From Trueperaceae bacterium (GTDB lineage: Bacteria > Deinococcota > Deinococci > Deinococcales > Trueperaceae), in the NCBI GenBank assembly GCA_965215565.1, contig CBDCDZ010000004.1, positions 3,655,185 through 3,687,184 of the forward strand: a DNA stretch of 32,000 bases. The letters run 5' to 3'. The translations under genes and the position numbers were made by a program. Positions within the stretch are counted from its first letter, which is position 1. Each line of letters begins with the position of its first letter. Positions 4,809 to 31,435 of this stretch are shown here, in pieces. The notes beneath the pieces were generated by a model, which was given only the letters and a program-made list of their open reading frames with translations, was not told the DNA's origin and ran no database searches.

Positions 4809-5585
4809 TCAGGCGGCGATAGGTAGCGCCCGGGTGAGTGCGCCGAGCATCTCTTCAGCGCTGCCGTAGCGCTCGCAAGGGTTGTGTAAGAGCGCCTTTT
4901 TGATGATAGGTGCTAGAGGCGCAGCCTCGTTTGGCAACGCGCCGAGATGCACAGTTGGGTCGCCCATGAGAAAGCGAAACACGTCTTTGCCGTAGGGGGG
5001 ACCGCCCGTCACCATGTGGTAGAGCACCGCGCCTACCGCGTAGAGGTCACTTCTTGGATCGCGCCGCTCGCCCGCGAACTGCTCGGGCGGCATGTAGTTG
5101 GGCGTCCCCAAAGACACGCCCTGCTGGGTGATCGCCGCGAGCGCTAAGTCTTTGGCGAAGCCGAAGTCTGTCAGGAGTGCCTTCTCGCCGTTGATGAGGA
5201 TATTCGACGGCTTGACGTCGCAGTGAATAACGTCACTCTTGTGGGCGTAGGCGAGCGCTTGGAGCACGTCCGTAGCAATCTTGATGCTCCGCTCTAAACT
5301 GAGCGTGCCTTGATTCAGCGCTTTCTCGAGCGACACGCCGGGGCAGTACGCAAAGATGAGGCTCATATCTTGCACAGCTAGGAGGGGCACGATGTTGTCG
5401 TGCTCCAAAAAGGTGACCACCGCAGCTTCGCGCCCTAATCGGTTGGCGAGCGAGGGCGAACCCCCTCTAAGCTCTTTAACCACCACGAGTTTATCGTGCC
5501 AGCGGGCTAACTCGACCCTCATAGGTCCGTGGTCCGAAAGTACGCGAATGGGAGTAAACATTGCCATAAGGTTATCATGTTTCAC
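4809..5585 (-). CDS. Small soluble Ser/Thr protein kinase-like protein
   Basis: Motifs VVVKEL (VAIK Lys), VIHCDVKPSNILI, LLTDFGFAKD, SLGTPNYMPPEQ, DLYAVGAVLYHMVTG. Confidence 0.9.
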   Translation of the reverse strand: MKHDNLMAMFTPIRVLSDHGPMRVELARWHDKLVVVKELRGGSPSLANRLGREAAVVTFLEHDNIVPLLAVQDMSLIFAYCPGVSLEKALNQGTLSLERSIKIATDVLQALAYAHKSDVIHCDVKPSNILINGEKALLTDFGFAKDLALAAITQQGVSLGTPNYMPPEQFAGERRDPRSDLYAVGAVLYHMVTGGPPYGKDVFRFLMGDPTVHLGALPNEAAPLAPIIKKALLHNPCERYGSAEEMLGALTRALPIAA

Positions 5586-9616: not shown

Positions 9617-9720
9617 CGGTTCGAGTCGACATGTGGTGTCATTGTTGCGAGAAGCAACTGTAGAGCGTTGTTCCAACCTCTCATGCTACGGTCGCTGCTA
9701 GTCGATGCCTTCTGGCATTT

Positions 9721-9761: not shown

Positions 9762-9764
9762 TTA

Positions 9765-10823
9765 CTATTGGAAGTTGAAAGAATCAGAGGTATTACAGGT
9801 GCCGGTTCTACCTCTATCCGACGCCGTGTGAGTCGTCGACTCCGAGCCGGACACTTCGATGTTCAAGCCTGCAACCCAGTAAGGGATTCTAGGCAGCGCC
9901 GAACCGTAGCGGCTGCTGGTGTAAGTGCCTGTCCGACTGCCCACCTCTTTAACAACGGTTCCTGAAACTGTAACGTTTTTCCGAACGCTGAGGCTCAAGT
10001 CTCCTTTGTTGGGCGTGTATATCCGACCCACATTTCCGGTTCCGGCGAATAAGCCGTATACCGAGGGGTTTCCTGGTAACTTGATCCAGGTGAATTTTGC
10101 CGCGCCGCTTGCGCCCACAACACGTCTGGCCCGGAGCCGTTTTTTGTAGTAGGTATCTACGCAGCTATCGGCGGCTAGCTCAGCTTTGGGGATCAGATAT
10201 TCTTTGATGAAGGAAATCAACCCTTGCGACTCCAAAACCGACGTACTCTCTACTGCGGCTGTAGAGCGCTCGATAGGGCTGTAGGCGACACCTAAATCCC
10301 TATTTGCCTGGGTGCTGAGAGACTCAGGCGTAGCAACAGCGCTCAGGTCGACCTGGGATAGAGAATCGACTGGGATAGCAACAATGTTATCGTCAGTGAC
10401 AAGGTAAACGATGTCCGCGATCTGTACTAGACCCTTCTCGTTTAGAATACTTTGAAGGTAAGGGTCGTGAATGATGGTCCGGGGTAAGAGGTCTTGATCA
10501 GCGAGAGATTCACGCTCCTCTGCACTGAGTTGAGCGAAATCCTCCTCCATAGAGAGGTTTTGCTGCTCAATTGTGTGTCTTTCCGAAGTGTAGCCCATGC
10601 GTTGCTCGAGACTATTCAAGAACGCTTCATCCTGATTGATGAGGCTACCCCAATAGGTTGCGAAGGCGTCGAAATCCGGAAATGTAAGGCGACCGTCGAC
10701 AAGCGACGCTTGAGCGGCAGAGTCGTATTCCTCTGGGGTTTGTACTGAGTTTTGCGTACCACACGCAGTTAAACCCACTGTTACAGACAGTAGTGCGACT
10801 AGTAGTAAGGATGTGCTTTTCAT
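9765..10823 (-). CDS. Predicted secreted lipoprotein of unknown function
   Basis: Restarting at the internal Met gives MKSTSLLLVALLSVTVGLTACG, a signal peptide with a lipobox; the remainder has no recognised motif. Confidence 0.75.
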   Translation of the reverse strand: MKSTSLLLVALLSVTVGLTACGTQNSVQTPEEYDSAAQASLVDGRLTFPDFDAFATYWGSLINQDEAFLNSLEQRMGYTSERHTIEQQNLSMEEDFAQLSAEERESLADQDLLPRTIIHDPYLQSILNEKGLVQIADIVYLVTDDNIVAIPVDSLSQVDLSAVATPESLSTQANRDLGVAYSPIERSTAAVESTSVLESQGLISFIKEYLIPKAELAADSCVDTYYKKRLRARRVVGASGAAKFTWIKLPGNPSVYGLFAGTGNVGRIYTPNKGDLSLSVRKNVTVSGTVVKEVGSRTGTYTSSRYGSALPRIPYWVAGLNIEVSGSESTTHTASDRGRTGTCNTSDSFNFQ

Positions 10824-11262
10824 AATTATCTCCTGTTTGAAAGAACTCGGGTCAGTCAAAGCTGAATCCAACAGACGGGACTTTGGAAACTCAGGGGTGT
10901 GAGTGCCGAATGTTAGATACTCGAACGAATCATGCTTACGGTGCTAAACGTAGCGTTGCTCCAGGCGCTTTGCAGCAAGGTGTCGAAATTTAGGTAGGAT
11001 GTGCCCGCTCTACCTATGCAGCTATGTACCGTGAAGAAAGCTTCCCTGCACCTACCTCCCTTTCTTTAGATTTAGGCTGTAAGCGTTACTAGTAACTTCA
11101 GCGATCAGTTGATCCACTAACAACCTTGACCTAAATCAAAAGCCTTCGAGGGTTCCCGGACGGAGCCACAAATCCTGGAACCTATTTGGAACCAAATACA
11201 AGTAAGGCTGTAGGCAACTTCGTTGAACTTGCGAAGCCGACAAGTAAGAAAGGATGACGACC

Positions 11263-11535
11263 ATGAAATATTTGCGCTTAGTTTGTCTTGGTATCCTCTT
11301 ATTAGGGTTTGGTGCACAGGTCTACGCCGAGCCAGCGCCCCCTTCGCAGGCTCAACACGAGAGCGAAGCGAGCGAGCATACCGACGCCGAAGACGCTTCT
11401 GGGCAGCATGAAGGTGGCTCGGACGAATCTACCGACCCTGAAGACCCAGGTGACTCAGTGGGGATGCCCTGTCCTTCAGGGGTCTGTGACAATAACGGGG
11501 GTGGCGCACGTAATCCGGTCGCTGCCGACCCGTGA
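11263..11535 (+). CDS. Small exported Asp/Glu/Ser-rich protein with a Cys/Gly C-terminus
   Basis: MKYLRLVCLGILLLGFGAQVYA signal peptide with A-x-A cleavage site, acidic linker, then MPCPSGVCDNNGGGARNPVAADP. Confidence 0.55.
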   Translation: MKYLRLVCLGILLLGFGAQVYAEPAPPSQAQHESEASEHTDAEDASGQHEGGSDESTDPEDPGDSVGMPCPSGVCDNNGGGARNPVAADP

Positions 11536-14302: not shown

Positions 14303-14488
14303 ACATTCCCCCAAAGACCGTGCTAGAGCACATGAGTACATGGAAGATACGAGGCTTGCCCTGAATTTCATCTGACTGCAAGCCTGTGGAGGCTGCTTCA
14401 TACGTCTGAAAAAGTATGTTGCGGTTCGCAACAGGTGGACGCAGACACCTGGGCTTGGTCTAAAACCTTGGACACTCAAAGTATACAG

Positions 14489-15362
14489 CTAAGCGGCTAG
14501 GCTCACCTCCTGAGTCTCTTTTCGCTGCTGGGATAGTTCAAAGGTGTCAGGCGTCTCATAGCCGAGCGAGCTGTGCAGCCGCTCGCGGTTGTAGTAGACC
14601 TCGATATATTCGAACACCGCGACGCGGGCGTCATCGCGTGTGGCAAAGCGCTCAATGGGATAAACGAGTTCGCGTTTTAGTGTCGCCCAAAAGCTTTCAA
14701 TGATGGCATTGTCGAAGCAGGCTCCTTTGCCTGTAAAGCTCGGCAGCATCTTGTGCGCTTCGAGTTCGCGCTGATAAGCGTAGGAGGTGTATTGAGAACC
14801 CCTGTCGCCTAGGTGAAGGCTAAGAGCCTTTGAGCTTCGCTCTAACCTTGTGATGAATCAAACCGGGCTGGGGCTTGCGCCGCGTCGTGGCTGAGCATAG
14901 GGCTTGCAGCACGAGGTCAGTCTTCATATTGTCACTCATGGCGTAGCCCACAACGCGCTTAGAGAAGCCGTCAATGACGCCCGCTAGATAAAGCCAGCCC
15001 TCGGCGGTCGGCAGATAGGTAATGTCAACATGCCATACCTGATTGATCGCTGTTGGGCGTGGTTGTTCCAGCAACAGGTTCTGGGTCTCGAGATCACAGC
15101 GCTCATACTTAGTGCGGTGTTTCTTGTGACTCACAGCGTAGAGCCCTTCACGACGCATAAGACGTTTGACTCTGCCTAGCGAACACGAAACCTGCTGCTT
15201 CTTGAGTTCGGCGTGGACACGGGGGCTGCCATATCTGCCCTTATTCTTCTCGAATACCGCTTTGATCTTCTCCAACAGCTCGGCGTTGCGCTTTTCGCAT
15301 TTGCTCGGCTCCCGCTGCTGACGAGCCCGCCAGTGATAGTAGCTGCTCCTAGCCACGCCCAA
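14489..15362 (-). pseudogene. IS3-family transposase OrfB, disrupted by a small (~37-40 bp) insertion in the catalytic region
   Basis: N-terminal part 14820..15362 (RYGSPRVHAEL, WHVDITYLPT, GLIHH) and C-terminal part 14489..14749 (GACFDNAIIESFWATLKREL, YNRERLHSSLGYETP) are in different frames. Confidence 0.9.
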
Positions 15363-15421
15363 GACCTTGCACAGCGCCGAGACGGAGAACTCGCTCTGGT
15401 GCGCCTCGATGAACGCGCACT

Positions 15422-15745
15422 TTAGGTTGTCTGTTTCGCAAAGTAAATGGCGGCCTTTTTTACGATCGCCAACTCTGTTTCAAGTCGCTTCACCTCCGCC
15501 TGGAGCCGTTTCAGTTCGGCTTCGTCAGCGGTCGGTTGTGCTCTTTTATGACCCATCACGAGTCGTCCCTCGCGGTATTGTCTACGCCACTTATGGATGT
15601 TCGACTCAGCAATACCCAAGCTCCGTGCCGCCTCGGTGATGCCGTAGCCCTTTTTCTCTACCAGTTCCACCGCATCGATCTTAAACTCCATTGGATACTG
15701 CCGAACCACCCTCTTGCCTTCTGCCATCGTCTTCCTCCTTAGCAA
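15422..15745 (-). CDS. IS3-family transposase OrfA (HTH_Tnp_1)
   Basis: KRVVRQYPMEFKIDAVELVEKKGYGITEAARSLGIAESNIHKWRRQYRE and leucine-zipper-like LKRLQAEVKRLETELAIVKKA. Confidence 0.95.
   Translation of the reverse strand: MLRRKTMAEGKRVVRQYPMEFKIDAVELVEKKGYGITEAARSLGIAESNIHKWRRQYREGRLVMGHKRAQPTADEAELKRLQAEVKRLETELAIVKKAAIYFAKQTT
15455..15461 (-). promoter_or_regulatory. Probable programmed -1 frameshift slippery site A6G for OrfAB
   Basis: Minus strand reads gtAAAAAAGgcgg near the end of orfA; a -1 shift moves exactly into the OrfB frame. Confidence 0.75.
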
Positions 15746-15783
15746 AGTCTATTCCTACTAACTTTGTCCAAGGTAGTGGGCCA

Positions 15784-16080
15784 ATGCCAACCTTAGCAAG
15801 CGAAGGTGCTCGAGGAATAGTACGTAAAATCACAAAGAGATGTACTTTAACGTTTGATGAACGCTCAACGGGAGTTGACGAGGAGAGGCTGCGAAAGCGA
15901 ACACTCGCCCGTTCGTTGTCTGGATTGAAGGGGGTCGAGGCTCTCCTCGACGACGCTTTCAAAGCGCTCTATCCGGACACACTTTTCCTTCGTAAAGACG
16001 AATTTTGCGGAGGTTGCCCGGAGACGAAATCGCTCAACGCCAACCCTTTAGCGACCACTGAGAAAGCCGCCAGGTCTTGA
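15784..16080 (+). pseudogene. Remnant of an uncharacterised ORF cut by the IS3 element
   Basis: Frame runs in from the IS end (VQGSGPMPTLASEGARGIVRKITKRCTLTFDERSTGVDEERLRKR...GGCPETKSL...); no independent start signal seen. Confidence 0.35.
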
Positions 16081-16100
16081 ACCGATCCGACGGCTTTCTC
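16060..16100 (+). terminator. Possible terminator hairpin
   Basis: gagaaagccg ... cggctttctc at 16060-16069 / 16091-16100, overlapping the end of the preceding remnant ORF. Confidence 0.5.
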
Positions 16101-16396
16101 TCGTTGTAGTTCCCCCGGCGGAGCACTCTTATTTTAACGCCGTCGTCATATCGAGAACAGGTGTGTACGGACTAGCTAATTCGGGGTTGGAGAACCTACA
16201 AAGAAAAAGCTCGAGGGGACCTCCAACCGGGGGGCGGGATGTAGAAGGTACGGTCCTCGAGACTTTCCTCAGCCTAGCCGCTCTCGGTCCCTCCGAATGA
16301 GCCATTGCGTTACCGAACGTCACTGTGAAAAGGTTCACTCTTTCCGCCGAGGTGTAACAAATAATCGGAGTAGAGCACAGATTTACTTGCTTTCAC

Positions 16397-16690
16397 ATGT
16401 CTATAATTGTAAACAAAAGTATGATGCTAAAGGTGAAAAAGTCGAGTAAGCGCACCTCTTACGAACGGGCATTCTTTCGAGCAGTAGGTGCACGCATAGA
16501 GCTGTTCAGGTTGCGGCGCGGGCTGAGCTTGGAGGAAGTTGCTGCCCATACAGTGCATCCGCCCGAGTGGCTGAAGGGGCTCGAGGCGGGAGTGGAGGAA
16601 CCGAGGCTCGACGACCTATTCGGCATCGCCAAGGCGTTAGGCACCGACCCCAGCGAACTCGTGAGGGTGGAGCCGAAGGTGTTTTCTTGA
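16397..16690 (+). CDS. XRE-family HTH regulator
   Basis: IELFRLRRGLSLEEVAAHTVHPPEWLKGLEAGVEEPRLDDLFGIAKALGTDPSELV. Confidence 0.8.
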   Translation: MSIIVNKSMMLKVKKSSKRTSYERAFFRAVGARIELFRLRRGLSLEEVAAHTVHPPEWLKGLEAGVEEPRLDDLFGIAKALGTDPSELVRVEPKVFS

Positions 16691-16740
16691 TACGGTCAGC
16701 TCTCACGGCAGCATAGGGGAACGTGTGACACGATGAGGGC

Positions 16741-16980
16741 ATGTCAGGACGCCGCAAGGACCCGGAATACCAGGCTTACAACCGCAAGGTCGGGGAGAGG
16801 ATCAAGGAGCTGAGGCGGGATAAGAACCTCTCTCAGGAGGAGTTTGCTGCCGAGGTCGGACTCAGCCGCTCGTACCTGAGTTTGCTGGAGACGGCTAAGC
16901 AGGACCCGTCGCTCTCGACGCTCTTTAGGGTGGCGAAGGTTTTGGGGTTGAGTGTGAGTGAGTTGCTCGAGGTGGAGTAG
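16741..16980 (+). CDS. XRE-family HTH regulator (second, adjacent)
   Basis: VGERIKELRRDKNLSQEEFAAEVGLSRSYLSLLETAKQDPSLSTLFRVAKVLGLSVSELL. Confidence 0.92.
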   Translation: MSGRRKDPEYQAYNRKVGERIKELRRDKNLSQEEFAAEVGLSRSYLSLLETAKQDPSLSTLFRVAKVLGLSVSELLEVE

Positions 16981-16996
16981 CGTCACCAGAAACTCT

Positions 16997-18664
16997 TCAG
17001 TAATCTATATTCATAGCTGCACTATCGGCGATTTCGTCTGCTGCTAAAGATAGAGCGTGCCTAAGTGCTTCCTGATTTTCATTCTTGAGCAAGCTGAATC
17101 GCGATTGACTCTGTTCGGGCAAGAGGGTTACGCCCGCCTTTTGAAGAAGTCCTCTATACGCAGGATTAGCCACGAATCCTATCATGTTGGAATAATCGTG
17201 CTTATACTTTTCTATGAAATACATAAGCCTTTCGTAAACCCGCGCTTGAGCTGTTTTATCGCGTTTAGATAAGAGGAAGTCGTAATTCAAAACAGCGGGC
17301 TCTTTCACGTAACGCAGAGGAACAGGTCCGTAAAGCCCGGATAAGAAAACAATGTCGATATCGTTCTCTAGTCCCTGTAAACTTTTCACGACTCGCTTAT
17401 ATGACGATGAGTCGGTGTACGGTTTAGCCTGAGAACAGGTGAGAATTAGACAGATAGGTTTCTTGGCCTTAAAACGCCTTTTACGTATATCGAAGGCAGT
17501 AGGGTCATTTCTGACTGGCTTCACCTCCACTGCTTCCGGTAGAGGCTCGCCCTCAAGCAAGGCGCGGAGCTGGGCTCTTGGACGAGCTAGTTCAACGAGA
17601 TAGTCTTCCAGTACGCCTTTCTCCCGAGCAGCAATTGCCTTATCAAGGATTTGCATATCCATTTCAAGATTGTGAAGTGCAGTCGCAGCATAAACGACAC
17701 TCTTACGTCCCCGCTTAACCTCACCTTTTTTGGCTCGCATTACGAAAACATCTTCATGCACATCGCGCGAGTAGCAGACTTGACATGTACATGGATAGGA
17801 CAAAAGTTCCCAAAGACGTCGTTCTTTGTAATTGGGGGTGATGTATTTAAGTGAGCGAGCTTTCTGAATATAACCACTAGTGTCGAAAGTAGTCGCCCCT
17901 GCATGTAAGAGGAAAGGGACGAGAAGTCCGGTGACACCAAAAACATGCATCGGTAACTCTCCTGCAGCGCCACGTACAGCGCGGACATAACGGACGATCT
18001 CCTGCTGTCTCCCCGCCTTTCTTAACGGAACTATGGAACCTAGCCCTACCCCGTGAACGATCTGCATGAGATTTTCCTTGTCGAGACGTTCAAGCACCTC
18101 CTGCGTGAAGATGGCAGCTTGCTCGGGTGTATTCCCGTGAACAGGAACTACAAGATTTATATCTTTATCCGGTCTCTCAGAAAGAATTCTTGCGCAGTAA
18201 AGTGCATTTTGAAGTGTCTTGTTCAGTCGGTTACGCGACTCTTCTTCAGTTAATCCAGGCGGTATCGGGTAATCTAAAGACACAATCCTCGAAGCGCCTA
18301 AAGCTAGCTGGAGTTCGAGAATCTTTTCCTGCATGTTATGTTCAAAGAAGCCGTAGCGATCCAATCCAGCGGGTGGACCCTGCATGAACACGTAACCACC
18401 TGAGTCAGCTAAAATGTGTGCATGATAATCTAAGTCGAAATTGCCATTGTAGTGTTTACGCAGAGGTTTAGACAGCCACATCTCGAGTTGTTTTGGTAGT
18501 ATGGCACCGTAGTTCAAAAAGTGTAGTGCTTGAACCATCACGGGTATATTACGCCTCAATAAACCTTGTTCCATGCCATGCAAGAGTTGCTTATACATGC
18601 CGCCGCCGTTTGGCGTTGTACCTGTCATCATAGCCGTAACTGGGTATAGGATAGAATTGTGCAC
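16997..18664 (-). CDS. dpdA: TGT-paralog, probable DNA deazaguanine (preQ0) transglycosylase (DpdA-like) with extra C-terminal domain
   Basis: HILADSGGYVFMQG (TGT DSGG), IVSLDYP, NLVVPVHGNTPE, IVHGVGLGSIVPLR, HVFGVTG, TFDTSGYIQKARS, zinc-site-like CTCQVC; neighbours PLD, helicase, yhhQ and queC match the Dpd context. Confidence 0.85.
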   Translation of the reverse strand: MHNSILYPVTAMMTGTTPNGGGMYKQLLHGMEQGLLRRNIPVMVQALHFLNYGAILPKQLEMWLSKPLRKHYNGNFDLDYHAHILADSGGYVFMQGPPAGLDRYGFFEHNMQEKILELQLALGASRIVSLDYPIPPGLTEEESRNRLNKTLQNALYCARILSERPDKDINLVVPVHGNTPEQAAIFTQEVLERLDKENLMQIVHGVGLGSIVPLRKAGRQQEIVRYVRAVRGAAGELPMHVFGVTGLLVPFLLHAGATTFDTSGYIQKARSLKYITPNYKERRLWELLSYPCTCQVCYSRDVHEDVFVMRAKKGEVKRGRKSVVYAATALHNLEMDMQILDKAIAAREKGVLEDYLVELARPRAQLRALLEGEPLPEAVEVKPVRNDPTAFDIRKRRFKAKKPICLILTCSQAKPYTDSSSYKRVVKSLQGLENDIDIVFLSGLYGPVPLRYVKEPAVLNYDFLLSKRDKTAQARVYERLMYFIEKYKHDYSNMIGFVANPAYRGLLQKAGVTLLPEQSQSRFSLLKNENQEALRHALSLAADEIADSAAMNIDY

Positions 18665-18704
18665 AGGAAGACCTTACCGTACGAAGAGCGATAAAGCAAG
18701 ACCT

Positions 18705-19151
18705 TCAAGTAGGAAGCAGGAATTCGTACCGCAACATTTTGCTTATATTCCTATGCGGGTTATCTACGATAAGAACGGTTTCAGCGTTGCGGTAAAAGCT
18801 GCCCCAGAGGAAGTTTGCTGACCCCACTAGAGCGATTTCATCAGTGATCAAACCCTTGCTGTGCAAGTGAGGAACAATGTGGTGTTTATCAGGCGTAAAG
18901 CGCGATAAAAGTGCATTGAGCCTCCGGTCCGGTTCTCTCGTATAGATTGAGGTTCGATGCCCCTGTCCTTGTAGATAAAGTAGCAAGGTGCTCAGTCGTT
19001 GCGGTCCCGATTTATTGACAGGATAAGGTAGCTGTAGGGGTAGATCGTCCATCCAAGGGCTGACAATTGCGATGTCACCCTCGCTACTCAACATAATCTG
19101 AGGAACCAACCACGGCAGCTTCTTAGAGGCTAAGAACACGGTTAGGTGCAC
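18705..19151 (-). CDS. dpdK: Single-HKD phospholipase D-like protein, DpdK-like
   Basis: IAIVSPWMDDL, HLHSKGLITDEIALVGSANFLWGSFYRNAE (HxKx4D motif); sits between DpdA-like and DpdJ-like genes and overlaps the helicase ORF. Confidence 0.72.
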   Translation of the reverse strand: MHLTVFLASKKLPWLVPQIMLSSEGDIAIVSPWMDDLPLQLPYPVNKSGPQRLSTLLLYLQGQGHRTSIYTREPDRRLNALLSRFTPDKHHIVPHLHSKGLITDEIALVGSANFLWGSFYRNAETVLIVDNPHRNISKMLRYEFLLPT

Positions 19152-22100
19152 CGCTCTCGAGAACCATCGGTAAGTTTTTCCCCTCTCTAGCCCTTTCGGA
19201 AAGTTCTTTGTTGCTCATCTCTATTATCAGCCTCGATAGTATTGACTCAGCGAGTAACCTTGAAGGCTCCTCGTCACCGATCTGCTGAGTACCGACACAA
19301 ACGGGGCAGCCATCAGTTTCTAAACAGGTGTATTGGAATGGCTCCCCACTCGCTCGTTGGTTGATCAACCGGGTAAGTTCGTTTGAAACTTCGACGAAAA
19401 TATCCTCTGGTAGCGTACTCTGGGGATCGGGTAGGTTGAGGCGTGCCACCGTACGCGTACGTAATAGTTGGGCGTCTATACCATCGCGCAATGCCTCTTC
19501 AGCTAAACCGACAGGGCATAGCACAACACGTAGCAGTTCTTGGTAAACCTGAAGTGCATCAGCCTCAAGTGCTTTCTGGAAAACTTCGATAAGACCCGCG
19601 CCCCCCTCAAAAACTTCCCACACCGAAACGTTATTGTCGCCGATCGCAGACTCTAAATCTTCACGGTGCACGCCGACGACACTTGCTACTGCCCGATGAA
19701 GCAGCTCTCGAGCGGTGGCAAGTGCCACTCCTCGGAGTTGCTGCGGCTGCGCTCGTCCCTCACTAAGCTCGTTGAGCAAGTCATCGAGCTGCCATCCAAG
19801 TGCTTGCGTGTCTATCGTATACACCATTGGCTCAAGGTAACGGACTTCAAAGCGGTCTGGATCGCCGCTAGCCCTGAAATACTCTGCGTCCGCGTCTCTA
19901 TCGTTTGAGTTACTCTTCAGATAACGATGTGACTCAACGTCAGAACCTAAAACTCTGGTCCTCCCTTGTCCCTCAAATACACGCAGTCGCTCGCTAATAC
20001 ACGTTCCCGTATGATTTTCGAAACGCCTCTCTAAGTAGGGCTGGGCGTAGAGCTTTCGAAATTCAAGTTGCCCGCCACATTCACAAACCCGCTTACTAAG
20101 ACTGTGAACCTTGTAGCATTGCTTACAAAATTTAACGACTTGGCGTCCTTGACGGTCCGTACGGACGCCGCGTAAAGGTACAATCTGAGGACGTACACCC
20201 CCTTCTACACTTAAACCCTCAATGGGTAAACGCACCCTGACCCTGCTTCCGTCAACCCAATCAGGGTGGTGTTCCGTATCGAGGGTTGCCAAAGTCGTGT
20301 CTCCATAATGACGATAAGTCAGTCTATACGGTAAATAAAGACTCGCTAAGTTGGAAACTTGCTCCTCTATGTAGTCAGAGCTGCCGCTAGAGTAACGCTT
20401 TTCGAAACGCAAAGGCTTTACGGTTTGAAAGTAAGATGAGGGTAGGAGAGAGCTGATGGAGACCGGACAGTTGTTCTCTACGCAGGTGTGGCTAGGTTCG
20501 CTTACTGCGTCGACGCCAGCGTGTAAATAGTAAAGCGAACCTAGCGTTACTTTTATGTCTTGTGGAGACGATTGGAAGGACCACCCTTTATTCCAGTGCT
20601 CCTTTAACGTGAAAAAGAAGTTGTGGAGCCGCTCGTAGTCAGAGATGCTTCCTTCGCCTGTTCGTCTTAGGTTATAGAGGTGAGCCCTAAGGTTAGTAAG
20701 CAAGGTCACTACTTCTGCGAGATGCTCGGCACGTTCAGGTTCATCAACGAGAATCTGGCTTACTTGGCTGATAAGACTATTGGTAGTAAGACGCTGTGTC
20801 GGCTGTGCTCCTCCAGCGAGGTAGTTGTCGATCTGCTCTCGGAATGCATCTAAGTCATTCATCAACTCGGTGGGAAAAGCGCTTCGAAGTTGAGTCAAAT
20901 GGCGTCTCAAATCGAGGATAGGTCCGGTTCTCTCTAATTCTCTATCAGCCCAGCCAATCAAAGCATCTTTGAATCCAGAAAGATCGAAGTAGCCTGCAAA
21001 TCTGTCTCTAAAATTGTCAAAGTCTTCCTGATACTTAGCACTCAATGTTGGGCAGGCTTCGAGCTGGTCGAGGATGTAACGTGCTATGGCCTTAGGTGGA
21101 AAACTTTCGTTTTGTTGGTAGTACTTGGCATATTGACTACGGTCCCGCTCCAGTCTCTCGTGTAATTGTTGAATAACCGCATTGTCCGTATTGAGGGGGA
21201 TGTCGAAAACGCCATTTAGTAACCGTTGACGTCTAAAAAGTGCGAAGTTATCCGGAGCGTCGTTACCCAATATAAGGATGCTATGACTTAGATCGCCTTG
21301 CTTTCGTCCAGCGCGTCCGCGCCTCTGAGTAAAACCTGCTAGAGAACGCGGTGGTCTGTATTGGACAACAGCTTTGATCTGTTCATTGTCCACGCCTACC
21401 TCCAGTGTAGGCGAAGCGACAAGAAGATTGGGACTAAGATTTTTACCCGTCTTCGATGTGACTTGAGCTACTGAGAGAGGCTCTTCACTAACTACTTCTG
21501 CTGGTTCATAGCAATCTTTGCCACCATGTATTCCTCTCCAGCACTCGCCCGCACTATAGATATCGCAGCGCATAGGTTCCTTGCGAGGGCAGGGTTCATT
21601 ATTCCCATTTAACGGGTAAGAAATATCTTCGACTACCGTGCGGAATGCCCAAAGCCCTTGATTGTGTTCAGCGTCTCGAAGCTGATTAAAAAAGCGCCCC
21701 GTCTGATCGAGAGAATCCGCAAAAATGATAACCTTCTCTTGAGGGGTCAAAAAAGCGTGCCCGAGTGCCATAGCGCACTGGATGAGTAAGGAAGACGGAG
21801 CAGGGCTTGACTCATCAGTTGGCGTCTGAAGCGTGACAAACCCTTCTATTCCTCCCAACTCTTGCTCTGCTTCGTAGGCACTTGAAAGAGCCTCGTGTGC
21901 TCGGACTCCCTGGTCACTCCCGTAAAATAATCGGCTCGCGAAACGTATAGGGTCCGAAATGGTTGCGCTGGCAGCAATGAGCGTGAGTTCTTTGCCAACA
22001 AGTTTCTTCAGCCGATTGATGAGCTGATGAACGTGGACGCCGTAAAGCGAATCGTACAGATGCGCCTCGTCGATAACAATTCCGCTGAGTCCTGTAAGGA

Positions 22101-23010
22101 ACGGTTCAAACTCCGGCCGAAGGTAGAAGGAATCGAGCGACTCGGCTGTCGTTACCATTATCGGTGGGTTTGCCTTGATATGCCCTTCACGCGATATTGA
22201 CACCGCAAAAGTTTTTTTGCAATCTGGGCACTCAAGTTCTCGGTAGGGTTGCTCTCCTTTTGGAAGGAGTCGCAATTTGACCTTCGCACCACAGACGGGA
22301 CATTCTTCTAGCGATTGAAATTCTCCTGATTCGAAGAGGGGAGAGCCATCATCGTCATATTGATTATCGACCGTTAATTGGTCAGAACGCTTGACGGAGC
22401 CGAACTGAATTCCTACCGGAATGACATGACCTTGCTGTCGCGCGAAATAGGCTGCGCTCAACACCCGCGCAAGTTGATCCTCAAGCAGGGCGATGCGAGG
22501 ATAGACTAAAATGAAACGCTGGGTGGGGTTCTTCAAAAGACTGTAGATAAGAGGAAGTACGAAAACTTCCGTTTTTCCGGCTCCCGTAGGTGCCGTGATG
22601 ACGAGTCCAGAGCGATTCTCCACTGATCTCAAAACTTCAGCCCAACCGTCGACCTGAAATCTACTAAATTCTGGGTACGGGCTCAGTTTGGCGACAGCTT
22701 CCTGTTCGGTCGTAGGAAAAGTGCTTACGCTGCGAATAGGTCTTGTGCGAGGTATGGCGTCAAAACGGAGGCGTCCAACAAGAACATTGCCGCTTTCGCT
22801 CGCTCCAAAGCGCTGTTTTACCGTCTCCAAAATCCGCAGTAGCTCAAGCGTTCGTGGCACCTTGACACTAGGGGAAAGGGCGACCATATGTGCATCTGTA
22901 CTGATAGCATTAGAACGCCGCGCCACAACCGCCGCATCTGGCGTTGTGTTGTTGCGATTTACTTCTGTGCTAATTCGCTCCAATTCTGCGAGTAGTTCAG
23001 GCAGCATCAA
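19123..23010 (-). CDS. dpdJ: Large SF2 DEAH-box helicase with Cys-rich clusters, DpdJ-like
   Basis: Walker A TAPTGAGKTEVF, IVIDEAHLYD, AASATISDP, QRRGRAGRKQGD; Cys pairs ECPVCGAK/ECPDCKK, FCKQCY/CECGG, GCPVC. Confidence 0.75.
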   Translation of the reverse strand: MMLPELLAELERISTEVNRNNTTPDAAVVARRSNAISTDAHMVALSPSVKVPRTLELLRILETVKQRFGASESGNVLVGRLRFDAIPRTRPIRSVSTFPTTEQEAVAKLSPYPEFSRFQVDGWAEVLRSVENRSGLVITAPTGAGKTEVFVLPLIYSLLKNPTQRFILVYPRIALLEDQLARVLSAAYFARQQGHVIPVGIQFGSVKRSDQLTVDNQYDDDGSPLFESGEFQSLEECPVCGAKVKLRLLPKGEQPYRELECPDCKKTFAVSISREGHIKANPPIMVTTAESLDSFYLRPEFEPFLTGLSGIVIDEAHLYDSLYGVHVHQLINRLKKLVGKELTLIAASATISDPIRFASRLFYGSDQGVRAHEALSSAYEAEQELGGIEGFVTLQTPTDESSPAPSSLLIQCAMALGHAFLTPQEKVIIFADSLDQTGRFFNQLRDAEHNQGLWAFRTVVEDISYPLNGNNEPCPRKEPMRCDIYSAGECWRGIHGGKDCYEPAEVVSEEPLSVAQVTSKTGKNLSPNLLVASPTLEVGVDNEQIKAVVQYRPPRSLAGFTQRRGRAGRKQGDLSHSILILGNDAPDNFALFRRQRLLNGVFDIPLNTDNAVIQQLHERLERDRSQYAKYYQQNESFPPKAIARYILDQLEACPTLSAKYQEDFDNFRDRFAGYFDLSGFKDALIGWADRELERTGPILDLRRHLTQLRSAFPTELMNDLDAFREQIDNYLAGGAQPTQRLTTNSLISQVSQILVDEPERAEHLAEVVTLLTNLRAHLYNLRRTGEGSISDYERLHNFFFTLKEHWNKGWSFQSSPQDIKVTLGSLYYLHAGVDAVSEPSHTCVENNCPVSISSLLPSSYFQTVKPLRFEKRYSSGSSDYIEEQVSNLASLYLPYRLTYRHYGDTTLATLDTEHHPDWVDGSRVRVRLPIEGLSVEGGVRPQIVPLRGVRTDRQGRQVVKFCKQCYKVHSLSKRVCECGGQLEFRKLYAQPYLERRFENHTGTCISERLRVFEGQGRTRVLGSDVESHRYLKSNSNDRDADAEYFRASGDPDRFEVRYLEPMVYTIDTQALGWQLDDLLNELSEGRAQPQQLRGVALATARELLHRAVASVVGVHREDLESAIGDNNVSVWEVFEGGAGLIEVFQKALEADALQVYQELLRVVLCPVGLAEEALRDGIDAQLLRTRTVARLNLPDPQSTLPEDIFVEVSNELTRLINQRASGEPFQYTCLETDGCPVCVGTQQIGDEEPSRLLAESILSRLIIEMSNKELSERAREGKNLPMVLESGAPNRVLSL

Positions 23011-23449
23011 CGTCGACCTCTACTCAACTCTGTATTCAGTTGCTTCGAAGCGGTGCTCACTTCATCGGAAGTCTTTGACATTTTATTGAACTCCTCTAGC
23101 ACTCCAGCGCGTTCGCTCTTTGCGCTCCCCAAGCAGAGATTGTGGAGAAATAGTCTGAGAAAGGTTACTCCACATTCCCTTTTCTATCTGCTAGCTCTTT
23201 CCCCTTCCTTCAGGAACTCATCGGTAAAAATTCACAAGAACTAAATGGAAGCGTAACACGACGTAACGACCTGATGCCATAGTGGATTAAGGGCGTGAGG
23301 AACTTCACAACTACCGTTAGAAATGGCCCTAATCTTCCGCTGAACCAAAGGCATTACGCACAGCATCTTGAGACTAGCTTCTTATATTCGAAATAGGTTA
23401 GCGTTATGAAGCTTACGGCGACTTCAAAGTTTGAGAGAGTGAGATAAGA

Positions 23450-24061
23450 GTGCGAAGAGACGTGTTGATAACGGTTTTAGTAGCCATCTATATCGCTACT
23501 GAGTTAGTTTCGAACGCCACAGCGGGCCGCCTCGTGCAGCTAGGCGCATTTGTCTTCCCTGGAGCGATTTTTCTCTACTCCCTTACCTTTACACTGCGAG
23601 ATGCGGTGCATACAGCGGGCGGTTGGCGCGTCGCCAAAGCGCTCATTTGGGCTGGCTTCATCGCGAACGCTATTCTCGCGCTTTACGGGTTGTCCATTAA
23701 CGCATTTCCTAAACCAGTCTGGTTCGATGACTCAGCTTACCAAGCAGTGTTCGGAACGACGGCAAGGGTAGTCGCCGCTTCTCTGGTTGCTTATCTCGCG
23801 TCCACCTGGCTCGACGCTCTCATCTTTGAACGTTTCAAGCGCTCGATAGTCAACCGCGTGCTTGCCTCAAATGTCGTTTCTACGTCTGTCGATTCTGTCC
23901 TCTTTATTACTATTGCATTCGCCGGCACAGGTGCCCCGCTGCTCAACCTCATTGTCGGACAGATAGTCGTTAAGATGATCGTAAGCACCCTACTCATCCC
24001 TGTCGTATATTGGGTGCGGGACACTTTACGTGAACAAGGGTTGGCGATGGAGGGATACTAG
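23450..24061 (+). CDS. VUT/YhhQ-family queuosine-precursor (preQ0/preQ1) transporter
   Basis: Multi-TM; IATELVSNATAGRLVQLGAFVFPGAIFLYSLTFTLRDAVHTAGG, SVDSVLFITIAFAG, QIVVKMIVSTLLIPVVY. Confidence 0.9.
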   Translation: MRRDVLITVLVAIYIATELVSNATAGRLVQLGAFVFPGAIFLYSLTFTLRDAVHTAGGWRVAKALIWAGFIANAILALYGLSINAFPKPVWFDDSAYQAVFGTTARVVAASLVAYLASTWLDALIFERFKRSIVNRVLASNVVSTSVDSVLFITIAFAGTGAPLLNLIVGQIVVKMIVSTLLIPVVYWVRDTLREQGLAMEGY

Positions 24062-24757
24062 ATGTCAAGAGCAGTCGTTCTACTCTCGGGTGGACTCGAC
24101 TCCGCTACAGCAGCTGCACAGGCTATCGCAGACGGCTATGATCTCATGGCCCTTTCCTTCCGATATGGTCAACGTCACGAACGGGAACTCGAAGCTGCTA
24201 AAGCGGTAGCCGAAGCGCTGCACATTCAAGAGCACTTCGTTAGCGACGTCAACTTGGCACAGTGGGGTGGGTCGTCTCTCACCGATGAAGATATAGACGT
24301 GCCTACAGGAGGGAGCGACGCGAATGCCATCCCCTCGACCTACGTTCCCGGACGCAACACCGTCTTCATTGCGATTGCGCTCTCGCTCGCCGAGGCGAAA
24401 AACGCTGAAGCCATATACCTCGGTATCAACGCCGTGGACTACTCGGGTTATCCTGATTGTCGACCTGAGTACTTAGAAGCGTTCAAAAATCTCGCTGAGC
24501 TTTCGAGCAAAGCAGGACTTGAAGGTAATGCGCCTAGGCTTGTTGCCCCACTCGTTATGGACTCGAAGGCAGACATCGTCAGGCGTGCCCTCAGGCTAGG
24601 TGTGCCCATCGAGAGTACATGGTCCTGCTATCAAGGCATGGAGGAGCCGTGTGGAGTCTGCGATTCCTGTCGTATCCGTGATCAGGCTCTTATTAAAGCA
24701 GGGAAAGCAGACTTAGTCGGCTCCTTCAATTTATCTCGCGCTGTCCCGAGTTGCTAG
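24062..24757 (+). CDS. queC: 7-cyano-7-deazaguanine (preQ0) synthase QueC
   Basis: [18 protein letters not shown] (PP-loop), [47 protein letters not shown]...[14 protein letters not shown] (zinc site). Confidence 0.97.
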
Positions 24758-25457
24758 CCCCTGGTTCATTGTCCGCTCCAATAAGGTTCTTATAGCTTTC
24801 GGCAAAAAGTGAAAGCGCAAATATAGTTTCATCAATAACTTCAATTGTCAGGTTGCTTGCTTTCTGAATGGAATCGAATTGAGGTCTCCAACCATTTGCT
24901 TTACTAATAAGTGTAAGTTTAGAAATTAGTTCGGGGTTCATTGTTTCTTTAGTAATTTTCCAGTCATCATGGGGATCATGATCAACTATGTAGCTATATA
25001 ACGGAGTTATTCCCCCACCTCCCGGTCGATCAAAACCGTAGAAGGTATATAGCGATGTTTCCCTGCCTTCAGGTAATGTGTAGAGACAGTTTCGCGCTCT
25101 TTCCTCTAACCATTTAGCCATCCAAGGATTAGAGCCATGTTCGCGCTCACTAGCAACCTTGATCAATTCCCTCAGAATACTTTGGAAGTCTTTGAGGACC
25201 CGCTGAACTAAAGAACAATAATTTAGCAGATGCGTAGCAACGGGGTAGTAGACAGTTTCTTGGATCAAATACCACGCAGCTATGTCTCCTCCCAGAACGC
25301 CATCTTCGTCAACGAACGTTTTAGCATGTCGCTCAATCATCACCGAATACATCTGTTCTAACGCCGACGCACGAGGGTACCAATCTTCATGACCTAGTTC
25401 TCTAATGTCACTAAATACAGAATTATCTGACTCGTCAGGGATCATTTCGTCTCCCAA
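24726..25457 (-). CDS. Uncharacterised 243-aa protein at the edge of the Dpd-like island
   Basis: Well-formed ORF convergent with queC (32-nt overlap); acidic and Trp/Tyr-containing; no motif recognised. Confidence 0.65.
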
Positions 25458-25547
25458 TCTAAACGTGAGAACTTAGAGTACAATATCTACAATTACAACA
25501 TTTTCGCATGGTCCAATTGTTTAGGATTTCGAGAAAAGTAATACAAC

Positions 25548-25737
25548 TATGGCAATGACTCACAAGCCACTCCAAACGGTGCGGGTCGCCCGGCCCCGCA
25601 GCTCCGTAGAACGCTTGCGCCTCAGCCTGCGAGGAAAAGTTGCCACAGTCGTGATCCATCCCTTGGGGGTCGCAAGTGAGGCTTGGTGGACTCGAGACCT
25701 CATCAGTAATATTCGGTACGACAGGCTCAAGCTGCAC
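25548..25737 (-). pseudogene. Excalibur-like (calcium-binding) domain remnant
   Basis: DPQGMDHDCGNFSSQAEAQAFYGAAGPGDPHRLE, followed in another frame by F-G-V-A-C-E-S-L-P-stop (25548-25577): the conserved C-terminus is split by a small deletion. Confidence 0.65.
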
Positions 25738-25973
25738 CTGCTGCGTCGGTAGAGCCTCCGCCGATACCTCGTGAATCCCATCCTCCGACGATCACGAACC
25801 CGCTAAGCTCTACGCCCTCTACGCGGCAGCGAAAGCCCTGCGTGACGAGCACGAAGATACTATCTTCGACCTCGTCGCTGAGAAAGAGGTCGGGTTGACG
25901 CTGACCGTCAACTCGAGCCGCTTAGCTTTCACGCTCGCCTACTTGCTCGCAGAAAAGGAATGAGGAGCTAGAC

Positions 25974-26838
25974 TCAGTAGAACGCCTCCGCAAAGAAGAT
26001 GAGCACGTCGTCCAGCGCCTCAGACCAGACCGCCCAGGTGTGTCCGCCGTCGGTGACGCGTAGTTGCGACTCTATCTCCGCTTCTTGGAGCGCAGCGTAG
26101 AACGCGGTGGAGCTCTCGAAGAAGTCGAAGACATCGTCATCACCAACCGTGATGTAGACAGGTAGGGGGTCCTCTGCTGACGCAACCTCAGCGATGAGCA
26201 TGAAGGGGTTGCGTTCCTGCTATAACGTCGAGTTAAAGGGCTCCGAAGGCTCCTGCAAGCAGCTCCTCGCGGCTCAGGCCCGCGTTGTCTTGCGGTGGCA
26301 CACCCTGGAACAGTGCTCCGCTCATCACTCCCACCGCCGCATAGGTATCCGGATGGCTGAACGCCAGGTACGCCGCGCCGTAACCGCCCATCGAGAGCCC
26401 GCCGATGGCGCGGGAGGTGCGCTCGGGAATGGTGCGGTAGGTCGTGTCGATGTGGTCGATCAAGTCTTCAGTGAAGGCCGTCTTAACATCGCCGAACGCC
26501 TCTGAAGGGACGTACCAACTGTTCTCTCCGTCGGGCATCACGATGATGGTTGGTGGGATGAGATTCTCGGCGATGAGCCGACCTGCTGTATGCGCCACGT
26601 CGCCGAAACGCACCCAGTCGGTGTCGCTGCCGCCGTAGCCGTGTAAAAGGTAAACGACGGGGTAGGCGCGGCTGTCACTGTCGTAGCCCTCGGGTAGATA
26701 GAGACTGTAGGTGAGCGTGTCGCCTAAGGCGTTGCTCTCAAAGCTCTGCCCCTCGAGCACCGTCCCTGCTGCCGCTCGGGAAATGAGTAGAAAAGCAATG
26801 AGGACAAAAAGAGTGGTGCGGAAGCCGTGACGTTGCAT
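25974..26838 (-). pseudogene. Secreted esterase (esterase D/feruloyl esterase-like alpha/beta hydrolase), disrupted
   Basis: Signal peptide; LTYSLYLPEGYDSDSRAYPVVYLLHG, DLIDHIDTTYRTIPER, AIGGLSMGGYGA (GxSxG); C-terminal part in another frame, VYITVGDDDVFDF...GGHTWAVW. Frameshift near 26235 plus in-frame TAG at 26220-26222. Confidence 0.87.
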
Positions 26839-27152
26839 AGGTGCTCCTCTCAATATTTTAGGTTGCAGCAGGATACCGCCTCGTCCCCGACACCGCGGCC
26901 AGAGAGGACACCTCGGAGTACTCAGTCCGCCAGCCAAACATAGTCCACGTGGGTTGATTGTGCCAATCCCTTCGACCATAGGTCACGTTCGAACACGAGC
27001 GCTACCTCACCGTGTCGGAGGCGGACCTCGGAAGTAACCTTGACCTAGTCGCGTGGGGTGGCGCGCTACCGCTTGAGCGTCACAACAGAATAATTTCAGA
27101 AAGCTCACCCGAGGTGTATGGAGTTAGGCCAACCCGTACGAAGCTCGGCGGG

Positions 27153-27776
27153 TCACGCCCTCGCCTTAAAGAGCCGCAGCGCGAACTGCATCAGCGGTCC
27201 GATGAAGAGCGCGAAGAGCACCGTTCCTAAGCCGACCGAGCCGCCCAAGAGGAAGCCGGTCACGAGCACGGACAGCTCGAGCAGCGCCCGCACCTTCCGG
27301 ATGCTCAGCTTCAAGGTCTGTGAAAGCCCCAACACCAGCCCGTCCCGAGGTCCCGCGCCGAGCCCCGCCGTGATGTAGAGCCCGCTCGAGAGTCCGACAA
27401 AGACGATGCCGAGTAGACACTGCGCCGTTCCCCAGAGGAAACCGTCGGCTACCGGAAACCATCCTTGTGCCACAAAGAGATCGACCCACAATCCAACTAA
27501 GACCATATTGAGCAGCGTGCCGAGCCCCGGCTTGACCCCCGAGAGGAGATAGCCGAGCACAATAACGAGGAGTCCCGTGAGTTGCATGACCCGCCCGAAC
27601 GAGAGACCCGAGCGTAAGCTGACACCCTCGTGGAAGACAGGCCAAGGACCTAAACCGACGTTCGCGGTGAGAACCAACGCAACGCCTAGAGCTAAACCGA
27701 CGAGTCCGAGGTTGAGTTGCACAAACCGCCGCCAGAAGCGGCTCGAGGCGAGTCTGTTGAGAGGGAGGGTACGCAC
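27153..27776 (-). CDS. YczE/YitT-family integral membrane protein
   Basis: LGLVGLALGVALVLTANVGLGPWPVFHEGVSLRSGLSFG, GLGAGPRDGLVLGLS, GFLLGGSVGLGTVLFALFIGP. Confidence 0.85.
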   Translation of the reverse strand: MRTLPLNRLASSRFWRRFVQLNLGLVGLALGVALVLTANVGLGPWPVFHEGVSLRSGLSFGRVMQLTGLLVIVLGYLLSGVKPGLGTLLNMVLVGLWVDLFVAQGWFPVADGFLWGTAQCLLGIVFVGLSSGLYITAGLGAGPRDGLVLGLSQTLKLSIRKVRALLELSVLVTGFLLGGSVGLGTVLFALFIGPLMQFALRLFKARA

Positions 27777-31381: not shown

Positions 31382-31435
31382 CTCGTTAGGCTAGCATTTG
31401 TAAGCGGACGGTTCGAGGGTCCGAGCAATTTCGAC

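Follow-up and report, generated by a model that had tools for sequence, protein, structure and literature searches.

A low-GC cassette in the genome of a Trueperaceae bacterium is rather likely to encode a minimal, three-gene restriction-modification system that resembles Dpd and carries its own precursor supply. The cassette lies in a stretch of 32,000 nucleotides (nt) that was analyzed as a whole and is termed the window (assembly GCA_965215565.1, contig CBDCDZ010000004.1, positions 3,655,185 to 3,687,184, forward strand). It contains two divergent operons (Table 1). The minus-strand operon encodes a YprA-family helicase, a small nuclease of the phospholipase D (PLD) family and a fused transglycosylase (TD), and the plus-strand operon encodes the transporter YhhQ and the 7-cyano-7-deazaguanine (preQ0) synthase QueC. 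The system of reference, Dpd (dpdA-K) of Salmonella enterica serovar Montevideo, was reportedly described by Thiaville in 2016 (see also Gedara 2023, PMC10164549). Enzymes of the tRNA-guanine transglycosylase (TGT) family, including DpdA and phage DpdAs, can swap guanine for preQ0 in DNA (PMC10164549, PMC10516641). Salmonella DpdA requires DpdB (PMC10164549), and the restriction phenotype is carried by dpdD-K (PMC10164549, PMC10516641).

An initial annotation, made from the DNA letters, had described the region as a compact Dpd-like island in which a TGT-like protein, a single-HKD PLD protein and a Cys-rich DEAH helicase on the minus strand diverge from YhhQ and QueC, and all five are present as open reading frames (ORFs). 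Its visual impression of a lower GC content was borne out by counting (0.489 for positions 16997-25457 and 0.491 for the entire cassette vs. 0.58 to 0.61 in the flanks). It had also seen neither DpdB nor DpdC nor an SNF2 helicase, and Pfam searches of the island ORFs and of all window ORFs of at least 150 aa likewise detected no ParB/DndB/DUF262, DUF6884/DpdC-like or SNF2 protein. Its proposal of a reduced Dpd variant holds in part. The deazaguanine supply, the TGT-superfamily enzyme and the best matches of helicase and PLD protein to DpdJ (5e-53) and DpdK (3e-10) agree with it, and the scores of these matches lie far below the DpdJ and DpdK cut-offs.

Table 1. Features of the cassette and its left border, with coordinates counted from the first nucleotide of the window
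Feature	Coordinates	Strand	Basis
XRE-type helix-turn-helix (HTH) protein, restriction-modification control-protein-like	16741..16980	+	PADLOC Control_protein 7.9e-15, HTH_VI 5.9e-16
Acquired low-GC cassette (island)	16977..25785		Homology break vs. sister contig L090, GC
TD, arcTGT-like + ArcS-core/DUF5591 fusion, 555 aa	16997..18664	-	Pfam TGT 4.4e-12, DUF5591 3.8e-6
Single-HKD PLD-family nuclease, DpdK-like, 148 aa	18705..19151	-	PLDc_2 1.8e-7
YprA-family (DpdJ-like) DEAH helicase, Cys-rich zinc modules, 1295 aa	19123..23010	-	PADLOC DpdJ 5.1e-53
Divergent intergenic region, 439 nt, presumed promoters	23011..23449		Read from sequence
YhhQ/Vut_1 queuosine-precursor transporter	23450..24061	+	Pfam Vut_1 4.2e-34; TIGR00697 80.6 bits vs. 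cut-off 50.95
QueC, preQ0 synthase	24062..24757	+	Pfam QueC 5.2e-73; TIGR00364 229 bits vs. cut-off 150
ORFan inside cassette, 243 aa	24726..25457	-	No Pfam, NCBIfam, PADLOC or PHROG match

The prediction centers on TD, whose gene begins 40 nt past the PLD gene and whose true start is probably an ATG located 11 codons downstream of the annotated one (P0001, 544 aa). Pfam recognized a TGT domain at residues 80-361 (PF01702; 46.2 bits vs. a cut-off of 26.3), followed at residues 397-509 by DUF5591 (PF17884; 27.3 bits vs. 26), the ArcS-core domain that the initial annotation had missed and that changes the predicted chemistry. Among the NCBIfam models, archaeal TgtA ranked first (83 bits vs. 350) and the ArcS alpha subunit second, by way of the C-terminal domain only (43 bits vs. 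440). The initial annotation had treated the TGT-like protein as DpdA-like and suggested a comparison with all Dpd families, which returned DpdJ and DpdK as best-scoring for the helicase and the PLD protein and nothing for DpdA. None of the DpdA models (PADLOC; NCBIfam NF041059, cut-off 200 bits; Pfam PF23859) matched TD at an E value of 0.01 or lower, whereas control DpdAs from metagenome Dpd clusters scored 433 to 614 bits. PF23859 was matched by 1 of 33 members of the TD family, and hhalign aligned TD with canonical DpdA over only 116 columns (92.7% probability). In searches with the profile of these 33 sequences, arcTGT (1iq8) came first (4e-31) and the DUF5591 protein AF0587 second (4e-11). 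They were followed by eukaryotic and bacterial TGTs (1e-9 to 1e-6), Cap10 (9ntn, 3e-5) and, last, Salmonella DpdA (7ui4, 1.5e-3), the Cap10 and DpdA matches both being short partial alignments. The annotation had named best matches to tRNA or archaeosine TGTs, with no relation to DNA-modifying members, as a result that would refute it. The first half of this is what was found, as the best matches are archaeal arcTGT (TgtA in NCBIfam, 1iq8 in the profile search).

Structure prediction gave a similar picture. The AlphaFold (AF2) model computed on the family alignment is confident (predicted local distance difference test [pLDDT], 91.6; predicted template modeling score [pTM], 0.85) and contains a predicted TIM barrel from residue 1 to approximately 372, which a flexible linker connects to a Rossmann-like domain at approximately 400-555. 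Neither a C2 nor a PUA tRNA-binding domain was detected in TD by Pfam or in the model, which ends with the DUF5591 domain. Foldseek returned arcTGT (1iq8) as the top PDB match (4.7e-19). In a viral library, the model matched phage TGT-like proteins, including that of Vibrio phage nt-1 (1.2e-8), and its C-terminal domain matched the nt-1 DUF5591 protein (5.6e-4). These matches matter because nt-1 DpdA2 and ArcS2 modify DNA. In Escherichia coli, DpdA2 alone puts 2'-deoxy-preQ0 (dPreQ0) into DNA (Cui/Hutinet et al. 2023, PMC10516641), and together with ArcS2, a stand-alone DUF5591 protein, it gives rise to 2'-deoxyarchaeosine (dG+) (PMC10516641). Since tblastn found no phage relatives of TD, the likeness to phage DpdA and ArcS2 is only structural.

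The residues expected of both activities are largely conserved. In the pairwise alignment with arcTGT, D87 of TD falls on the catalytic D95, D261 on the nucleophile D249, GSIVP on the preQ0-pocket sequence GGVVP, a pair of which plays a role in specificity (PMC5699537), and CTCQVC on the zinc motif CSCPVC. Among 86 TD homologues, D87, D131, H176 and D261 are invariant, and the zinc site C292/C294/C297/H331 is kept in 84 to 86. The same 86 sequences retain the ArcS motif PC-X3-KPY-X2-S-X2-H to a high degree (P in 84, C-KPY in 86, S in 83 and H in 75), and the family consensus has all seven specified residues. Within the ArcS domain, C410, K414, P415, Y416, S442, G443, Y445 and G446 are invariant in all 86, including the window protein. 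By sequence and modeled fold, TD is thus best described as an arcTGT-like transglycosylase fused to the catalytic core of ArcS and not as a DpdA, and it is predicted to be a DNA-guanine transglycosylase and preQ0 modifier. The family is rare, with 58 clusters at an E value of 1e-30 or lower among 1.84 billion representatives and 135 matches in 185,579 species genomes, and the closest homologues of TD are found in Chloroflexota and Deinococcales. In the literature, we found no description of a bacterial TGT::DUF5591 fusion or of the triad of TD, helicase and PLD protein.

The helicase carries the motifs GAGKT (at residue 143), DEAH (at 314), SAT and QRRGRAGR, as well as 21 Cys residues that include four CxxC motifs. 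In PADLOC, DpdJ was its first match (178 bits), followed by SngC (87), DruE (64) and DrmA (52). The NCBIfam DpdJ model (NF041067) yielded 168 bits, below the equivalog cut-off of 800, and aligned only with residues 98-572. A profile of 13 members of the helicase clade had YprA/MrfA (6znp, 1.3e-34) as its top PDB match, and the Pfam domain MZB (DUF1998, MrfA zinc-binding) was detectable in 7 of the 13. The window helicase itself did not reach an E value of 0.05 against MZB; it keeps the conserved Cys residues of the clade (C962, C965, C976, C1229, C1235 and C1238). Its features place it in the YprA family (DrmAB/DpdJ/DruE type), with a DEAH core and a putative MrfA-type zinc module. The clade is small and sharply bounded: it comprises approximately 30 clusters at 32% identity or more, after which scores fall from 552 to 125 bits.

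The PLD protein exceeded the PLDc_2 cut-off (31.5 vs. 27 bits), and its motif H97-S-K-GLIT-D-EIALV-GSAN fits the pattern HxK(x)4D...GSxN of PLD/HKD nucleases. Its best matches were DpdK in PADLOC (3.3e-10) and in NCBIfam (NF041068, 36.8 bits, below the equivalog cut-off of 100). For comparison, DpdJ and DpdK of control loci reached 1466 and 166 bits in NCBIfam. These control loci, which contain mostly canonical DpdJ and other YprA helicases, were obtained in a metagenome scan with the helicase profile and are not new members of the family. In the control loci, canonical DpdJ (~1470 to 1590 aa) is encoded directly 5' of DpdK (~175 aa). In the window, the helicase gene is followed by the PLD gene with an overlap of 29 nt, so that the pair, which the initial annotation had likened to the restriction genes of Dpd, mirrors the canonical arrangement. 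Because order and adjacency are the same, the two genes are homologous as a unit to DpdJ-DpdK. Judged by their scores, the proteins are DpdJ-like and DpdK-like and not orthologues.

To place the window in context, the neighborhoods of 87 TD loci (designated by L numbers) were studied by our own ORF calling, clustering and hidden Markov model (HMM) searches. Approximately 20 unrelated loci, distributed over Chloroflexota, cyanobacteria, Deinococcales and one haloarchaeon, contain the triad of TD, YprA/DpdJ-like helicase and small PLD protein, a recurrence that exceeds chance. It is complete in the window, L004/5, L007, L009 (Deinococcales), L010 (Thermoflexus), L014 (Microcoleus), L026, L028, L029, L076 and L085 (haloarchaeon). 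In L017, L020, L022, L027 and L091, TD and the helicase are present and the PLD gene is lost to the contig end or undetected. A PLD homologue of 146 to 180 aa comes next after the helicase in most related loci, and most loci with the triad also contain preQ0 genes, namely, YhhQ with or without QueC, or QueD-QueE-QueC. The order of the triad varies: TD leads in most loci, whereas the window has it at the end. A search seeded with the helicase recovered four new contexts, three of which (L172-L174) have the arrangement [Vut_1]-TD-helicase-PLD-[QueC-Vut_1]; the contig of the fourth stops at the helicase. Overall, TD adjoins the helicase in approximately 19 of the 20 loci examined from the helicase clade, the sole exception being a contig that ends at the helicase. 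In L171 (Crocosphaera sp. XPORK-15E), a helicase of the window clade is preceded by DndB-like, UvrD-like and PD-(D/E)xK genes, and the contig ends after the helicase.

Other TD homologues have different partners, among them other defense effectors. In cyanobacteria, TD is located beside a DUF262 protein that matches the defense proteins NsnA (1e-58) and PD-T4-2_A (1e-37) and is followed by a HEPN protein, and in Blastocatellia and Thermosporothrix, NurA and HerA are encoded upstream of TD. Haloarchaeal loci, including those on megaplasmids, contain QueC/E/D, a second short TGT with a weak DpdA match, a DUF6884 protein with a weak DpdC match and a GHKL ATPase; some of them also have the helicase-PLD pair. 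Locus L088 on a Haladaptatus plasmid (NZ_CP119784) encodes three TGT paralogues of 352, 654 and 673 aa, along with a DEAD helicase, a PLD protein, a DUF6884 protein, a GHKL-type ATPase and a 1493-aa AAA protein, and appears to be a cluster of the BRIGADE type that possesses several enzymes for base exchange. In Poribacteria (~45 genomes), TD has no adjacent effector. It is often preceded there (L031-L070) by an N6/N4 DNA-methyltransferase-like or QueD-like gene, a single genome encodes it twice (L054 and L068), and the enzyme may be an orphan DNA-modification enzyme.

Within the plus-strand operon of the window, the YhhQ and QueC genes abut. With its score above the equivalog cut-off, QueC is a canonical preQ0 synthase and not a Cap9/QatC-like variant. 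In the proposed mechanism, YhhQ would import a queuosine precursor and QueC would turn 7-carboxy-7-deazaguanine (CDG) into preQ0. The arcTGT-like TIM barrel of TD would then swap guanine in host DNA for preQ0, and its ArcS-core domain would probably turn the nitrile into an amidine-type derivative, either dG+ or an amino-acid adduct. Thermococcus ArcS accepts the bare preQ0 nucleoside, with no tRNA shape needed, and transfers lysine to it, after which archaeosine (G+) is completed by RaSEA, the radical S-adenosylmethionine (SAM) partner of ArcS (PMC11298593). The YprA/DpdJ-like helicase would scan DNA and, together with the DpdK-like PLD protein, degrade DNA that lacks the mark, with a possible anti-phage activity. 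The helicase may also stand in for the ATPase function of DpdB toward the transglycosylase. The architecture of TD and of the triad is surprising. The sequences directly show which genes and domains are present, which residues are conserved, that the triad recurs and where the cassette ends, whereas we infer every functional step by computation, including the choice of DNA over RNA as the substrate, the nature of the modified base and the split into modification and restriction roles.

Several observations weigh against this reading. TD is unrecognized by any DpdA model, and its nearest characterized relatives are tRNA enzymes. The island encodes no DpdB-like ATPase, and it lacks FolE, QueD and QueE, so that precursor supply would rest on the rest of the genome or on uptake. 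Approximately 45 Poribacteria homologues have no adjoining nuclease or helicase, and TD is therefore not always part of a restriction system. Furthermore, HEPN, which is usually an RNase fold, is one of the partners of TD in cyanobacteria. The ArcS motif of the window protein (T-C-SQA-KPY-TD-S-SS-Y) keeps five of seven specified residues and is degenerate at two, with T409 for P and Y422 for H. The window protein has this deviation (P409T, and H422Y or F) in common with its nearest relatives, L004 and L008, and because of it the second, ArcS-type activity may be altered or lost in the clade of the window. No RaSEA-type radical-SAM partner, which archaea require to finish G+, was found by Pfam among the island and window ORFs. 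The two motif deviations and the missing RaSEA-like gene make the nature of the final base the least secure step of the proposal.

It is at this step that the best-surviving alternative departs from the proposal. With the same restriction-modification logic, the DUF5591 domain of the window would no longer be an amidinotransferase, possibly serving in dimerization or substrate binding, and the self-mark would be dPreQ0. We consider this unlikely. The two motif changes in TD and its nearest relatives, at positions kept by 75 to 84 of 86 homologues, would fit such a loss, as would the missing RaSEA-like gene and the marginal Pfam score of DUF5591. The eight invariant residues of the ArcS domain, however, argue for a maintained active site, and the motif of nt-1 ArcS2, likewise described as degenerate, still allowed dG+ to be made (PMC10516641).

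Less probable still is that TD acts on tRNA or other RNA, in effect as a bacterial archaeosine pathway, and that its proximity to helicase and PLD genes reflects co-residence on a mobile island. The top matches in sequence and structure are indeed tRNA enzymes (arcTGT and ArcS), the Poribacteria homologues lie among housekeeping-looking genes, and the cyanobacterial HEPN partners suggest an RNA link. TD nevertheless has no PUA or C2 RNA-binding domain. Its adjacency to the helicase is maintained across four phyla and shuffled gene orders, which is unexpected from chance co-residence, and its rare and patchy distribution is typical of defense genes and not of a tRNA modification pathway. In type IV CBASS, the TGT-like protein Cap10 is thought to conjugate a 7-deazaguanine base to protein. 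A comparable effector or regulator role of TD, either by such a conjugation or by removing or exchanging bases of invading DNA ahead of the action of the helicase and PLD protein, appears similarly improbable. The family profile slightly favors Cap10 over Salmonella DpdA, a DpdB-like loader is missing and the very different effector sets coupled to TD would also suit a sensor or effector. The Cap10 and DpdA alignments are both short and partial, however, QueC is of the canonical type and not Cap9/QatC-like, no gene for a CD-NTase or another obvious protein target is present, and homology ties the helicase-PLD pair to the restriction half of Dpd. That the island is a degraded Dpd or a remnant of one is finally ruled out by the intact ORFs, the conserved catalytic residues and the recurrence of the triad across phyla.

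The boundaries of the cassette were fixed by comparison with the sister metagenome contig L090, which stems from a very close relative, because the search for tRNA genes and direct repeats gave no integration site: no tRNA gene was found, and the flanking direct repeats were short and at chance level. L090 is 98.9% identical to window positions 11840-14450, 98.4% to 28721-32000 and approximately 89% to 15790-16976 and 27145-27761. On the left, homology ends at 16976; on the right, it returns as rearranged pieces from 25786 and is collinear from 27145. Positions 25786-26199 and 26566-26673 are 81 to 86% identical to L090 806-1328, beyond the ankyrin gene, which indicates a local rearrangement at the right edge of the cassette. 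Between the points that match 16976 and 27145, L090 holds another cassette of 5.5 kb (L090 6157-11687), encoding an ORC/Cdc6-like AAA protein, an HD-CE protein, a C5 DNA methylase, an HhH-GPD glycosylase and a 161-aa ORF. PADLOC gave no match to this cassette except a weak one to mad8, and it may be an uncharacterized methylation-based defense system. The comparison identifies the island as a discrete, horizontally acquired cassette of 8.8 kb (16977 to approximately 25785) at a site where related strains hold alternative DNA-modification or defense cargo.

Two XRE-type HTH genes (16397..16690 and 16741..16980) lie in tandem at the left junction, which coincides with the stop codon of the second. 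This second gene is part of the conserved flank and is kept in L090 beside its different cassette; it is a possible regulator of the cassette. Upstream of the YhhQ and QueC genes (22900-23600), Rfam gave no match to any family, preQ1 riboswitches included, at the gathering threshold or at an E value of 1 or lower. The divergent intergenic region contains no convincing sigma-70 consensus, and a promoter and terminator scan returned fewer sites than shuffled sequences predict and was uninformative. At the right end, the 243-aa ORFan shares 32 nt with the 3' end of queC. It matched only itself among 5.8 billion proteins and is found in none of the related loci, and its membership in the system is uncertain. 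Together with a 92-aa ORF, it makes up a pair of minus-strand ORFs in the low-GC positions 24726-25737, neither of which has a family match.

The flanks show further signs of change. An element of the insertion sequence type IS3 (14450-15790), with imperfect terminal inverted repeats of 25 nt, contains an HTH_Tnp_1 orfA (15422..15745) and rve fragments in two ORFs (14820..15362 and 14489..14749). L090, which is near-identical, lacks the element, so that the insertion is recent. The element is located at the 5' end of an ORF of 895 aa in the conserved left flank (11792-14479). This ORF has no Pfam or PADLOC match, its L090 orthologue has a weak YTH3_C match, and in L004 (11949-13274) the protein after TD combines an ABC_tran domain with a weak YTH3_C match; such YTH3_C-matching proteins near the site may be readers of modified bases. 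Farther to the left are two more low-GC patches (0.48 to 0.50). One, at 3500-5000, includes an apparently truncated Ser/Thr kinase gene (4809..5585), and the other, at 9500-11500, a 368-aa ORF without a family match (9765..10871). On the right, positions 28722-31993 encode an ankyrin-repeat protein, an XPB-type helicase (XPB_DRD; PADLOC PbeA, 3.9e-53) and a DUF790/Bax1-like nuclease, and in L004 an ankyrin gene and an XPB-type helicase gene are likewise located beside the TD module, in the opposite orientation. A gene for a short-chain dehydrogenase/reductase (SDR) or enoyl-acyl carrier protein (ACP) reductase-like protein at 27966-28721, between the DUF790 and DUF6198 genes, is not present in L090 and represents a second strain-specific insertion or deletion.

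An archaeosine-type base in DNA has so far been reported only for phages. A broader proposal, which we regard as a real but tentative possibility, is that TD founded a lineage of DNA-guanine transglycosylases whose origin, directly in the arcTGT/ArcS stock, was independent of DpdA. A single chain would insert preQ0 into chromosomal DNA and convert it into an archaeosine-type base (dG+ or a lysine/amidine adduct), and this portable self-mark would be plugged into at least four effector sets (DpdJ/K-like, DUF262 plus HEPN, NurA plus HerA and haloarchaeal BRIGADE-like). If the predictions are true, TD would be the first predicted single-chain writer that inserts and then tailors a base, the DNA base-exchange enzymes would gain a second family with an evolutionary origin of its own, and an archaeosine-type base would be expected in cellular, non-phage DNA. 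The coupling of one writer to four unrelated effector modules would imply that hypermodified-base marks are swapped between immune systems in the way methyltransferases are. The 11-gene Dpd would shrink to a tractable core of three genes, in which the discrimination between 7-deazaguanine-marked and unmarked DNA by a YprA-type helicase and a PLD nuclease could be tested much more easily. In practical terms, a compact, sequence-specific guanine-exchange enzyme could serve in DNA labeling.

Among the known systems, DISARM (DrmA/DrmB/DrmC) has, like the window, a helicase of the YprA type that includes a DUF1998 module, together with a PLD protein (weak DrmC matches) and a DNA-modifying enzyme. 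It differs by its methyltransferase mark and by DrmD or DrmE, and the window helicase scores much better against DpdJ than against DrmA (178 vs. 52 bits). BRIGADE, which has been reported only in haloarchaea and usually contains two YprA helicases, DpdG and BrxC-like factors (2025 preprint on YprA helicases, 10.1101/2025.09.15.676423), shares with the window its cluster of 7-deazaguanine genes, a helicase of the YprA family and a small PLD nuclease. TD homologues of 27 to 30% identity lie in haloarchaeal clusters of the BRIGADE type, and the arrangement of haloarchaeal TD fits the BRIGADE description. These loci add a short DpdA-like TGT, a DUF6884/DpdC-like protein and a GHKL ATPase, whereas the bacterial window has the triad only. 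The window contains a single YprA-like helicase and no DpdG or BrxC-like ORF, and its flanks look bacterial. The TD-helicase-PLD system is thus related to BRIGADE but outside its definition.

The Dpd system of Salmonella likewise combines a TGT-superfamily enzyme beside preQ0-pathway genes with a YprA-family helicase followed by a small PLD protein, and the predicted logic, a 7-deazaguanine self-mark and restriction of unmarked DNA, is the same. The window, however, has three core genes instead of eleven, with DpdB, DpdC and DpdD-I absent, and tests for canonical DpdA, DpdB, DpdC, DpdJ and DpdK recovered none of the five. Its transglycosylase belongs to the arcTGT-like lineage and carries an ArcS core in place of a separate DpdC, from which it follows that the predicted final base differs from 2'-deoxy-7-amido-7-deazaguanosine (dADG). 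The window system probably functions in the manner of Dpd without belonging to it.

The nearest relatives of TD in sequence and structure, archaeal arcTGT (TgtA) and ArcS (TgtA2), make archaeosine in tRNA and share with it the Asp pair, the zinc site, the hydrophobic preQ0 pocket and the core of PCX3KPYX2SX2H. In contrast to them, TD unites an arcTGT-type catalytic domain with the C1 core of ArcS on a single chain, without C2/PUA domains or a RaSEA partner. It is also bacterial, occurs in defense contexts and scores far below their equivalog cut-offs. The DpdA2 and ArcS2 proteins of phage nt-1, a TGT-like base inserter and a stand-alone DUF5591 core, both match the domains of the TD model structurally, with no sequence similarity detectable by tblastn. 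They are two separate phage proteins that evade restriction, whereas the window encodes one chromosomal polypeptide coupled to a helicase and a nuclease. TD is the fused counterpart of nt-1 DpdA2 and ArcS2 and is evolutionarily nearer to arcTGT and ArcS.

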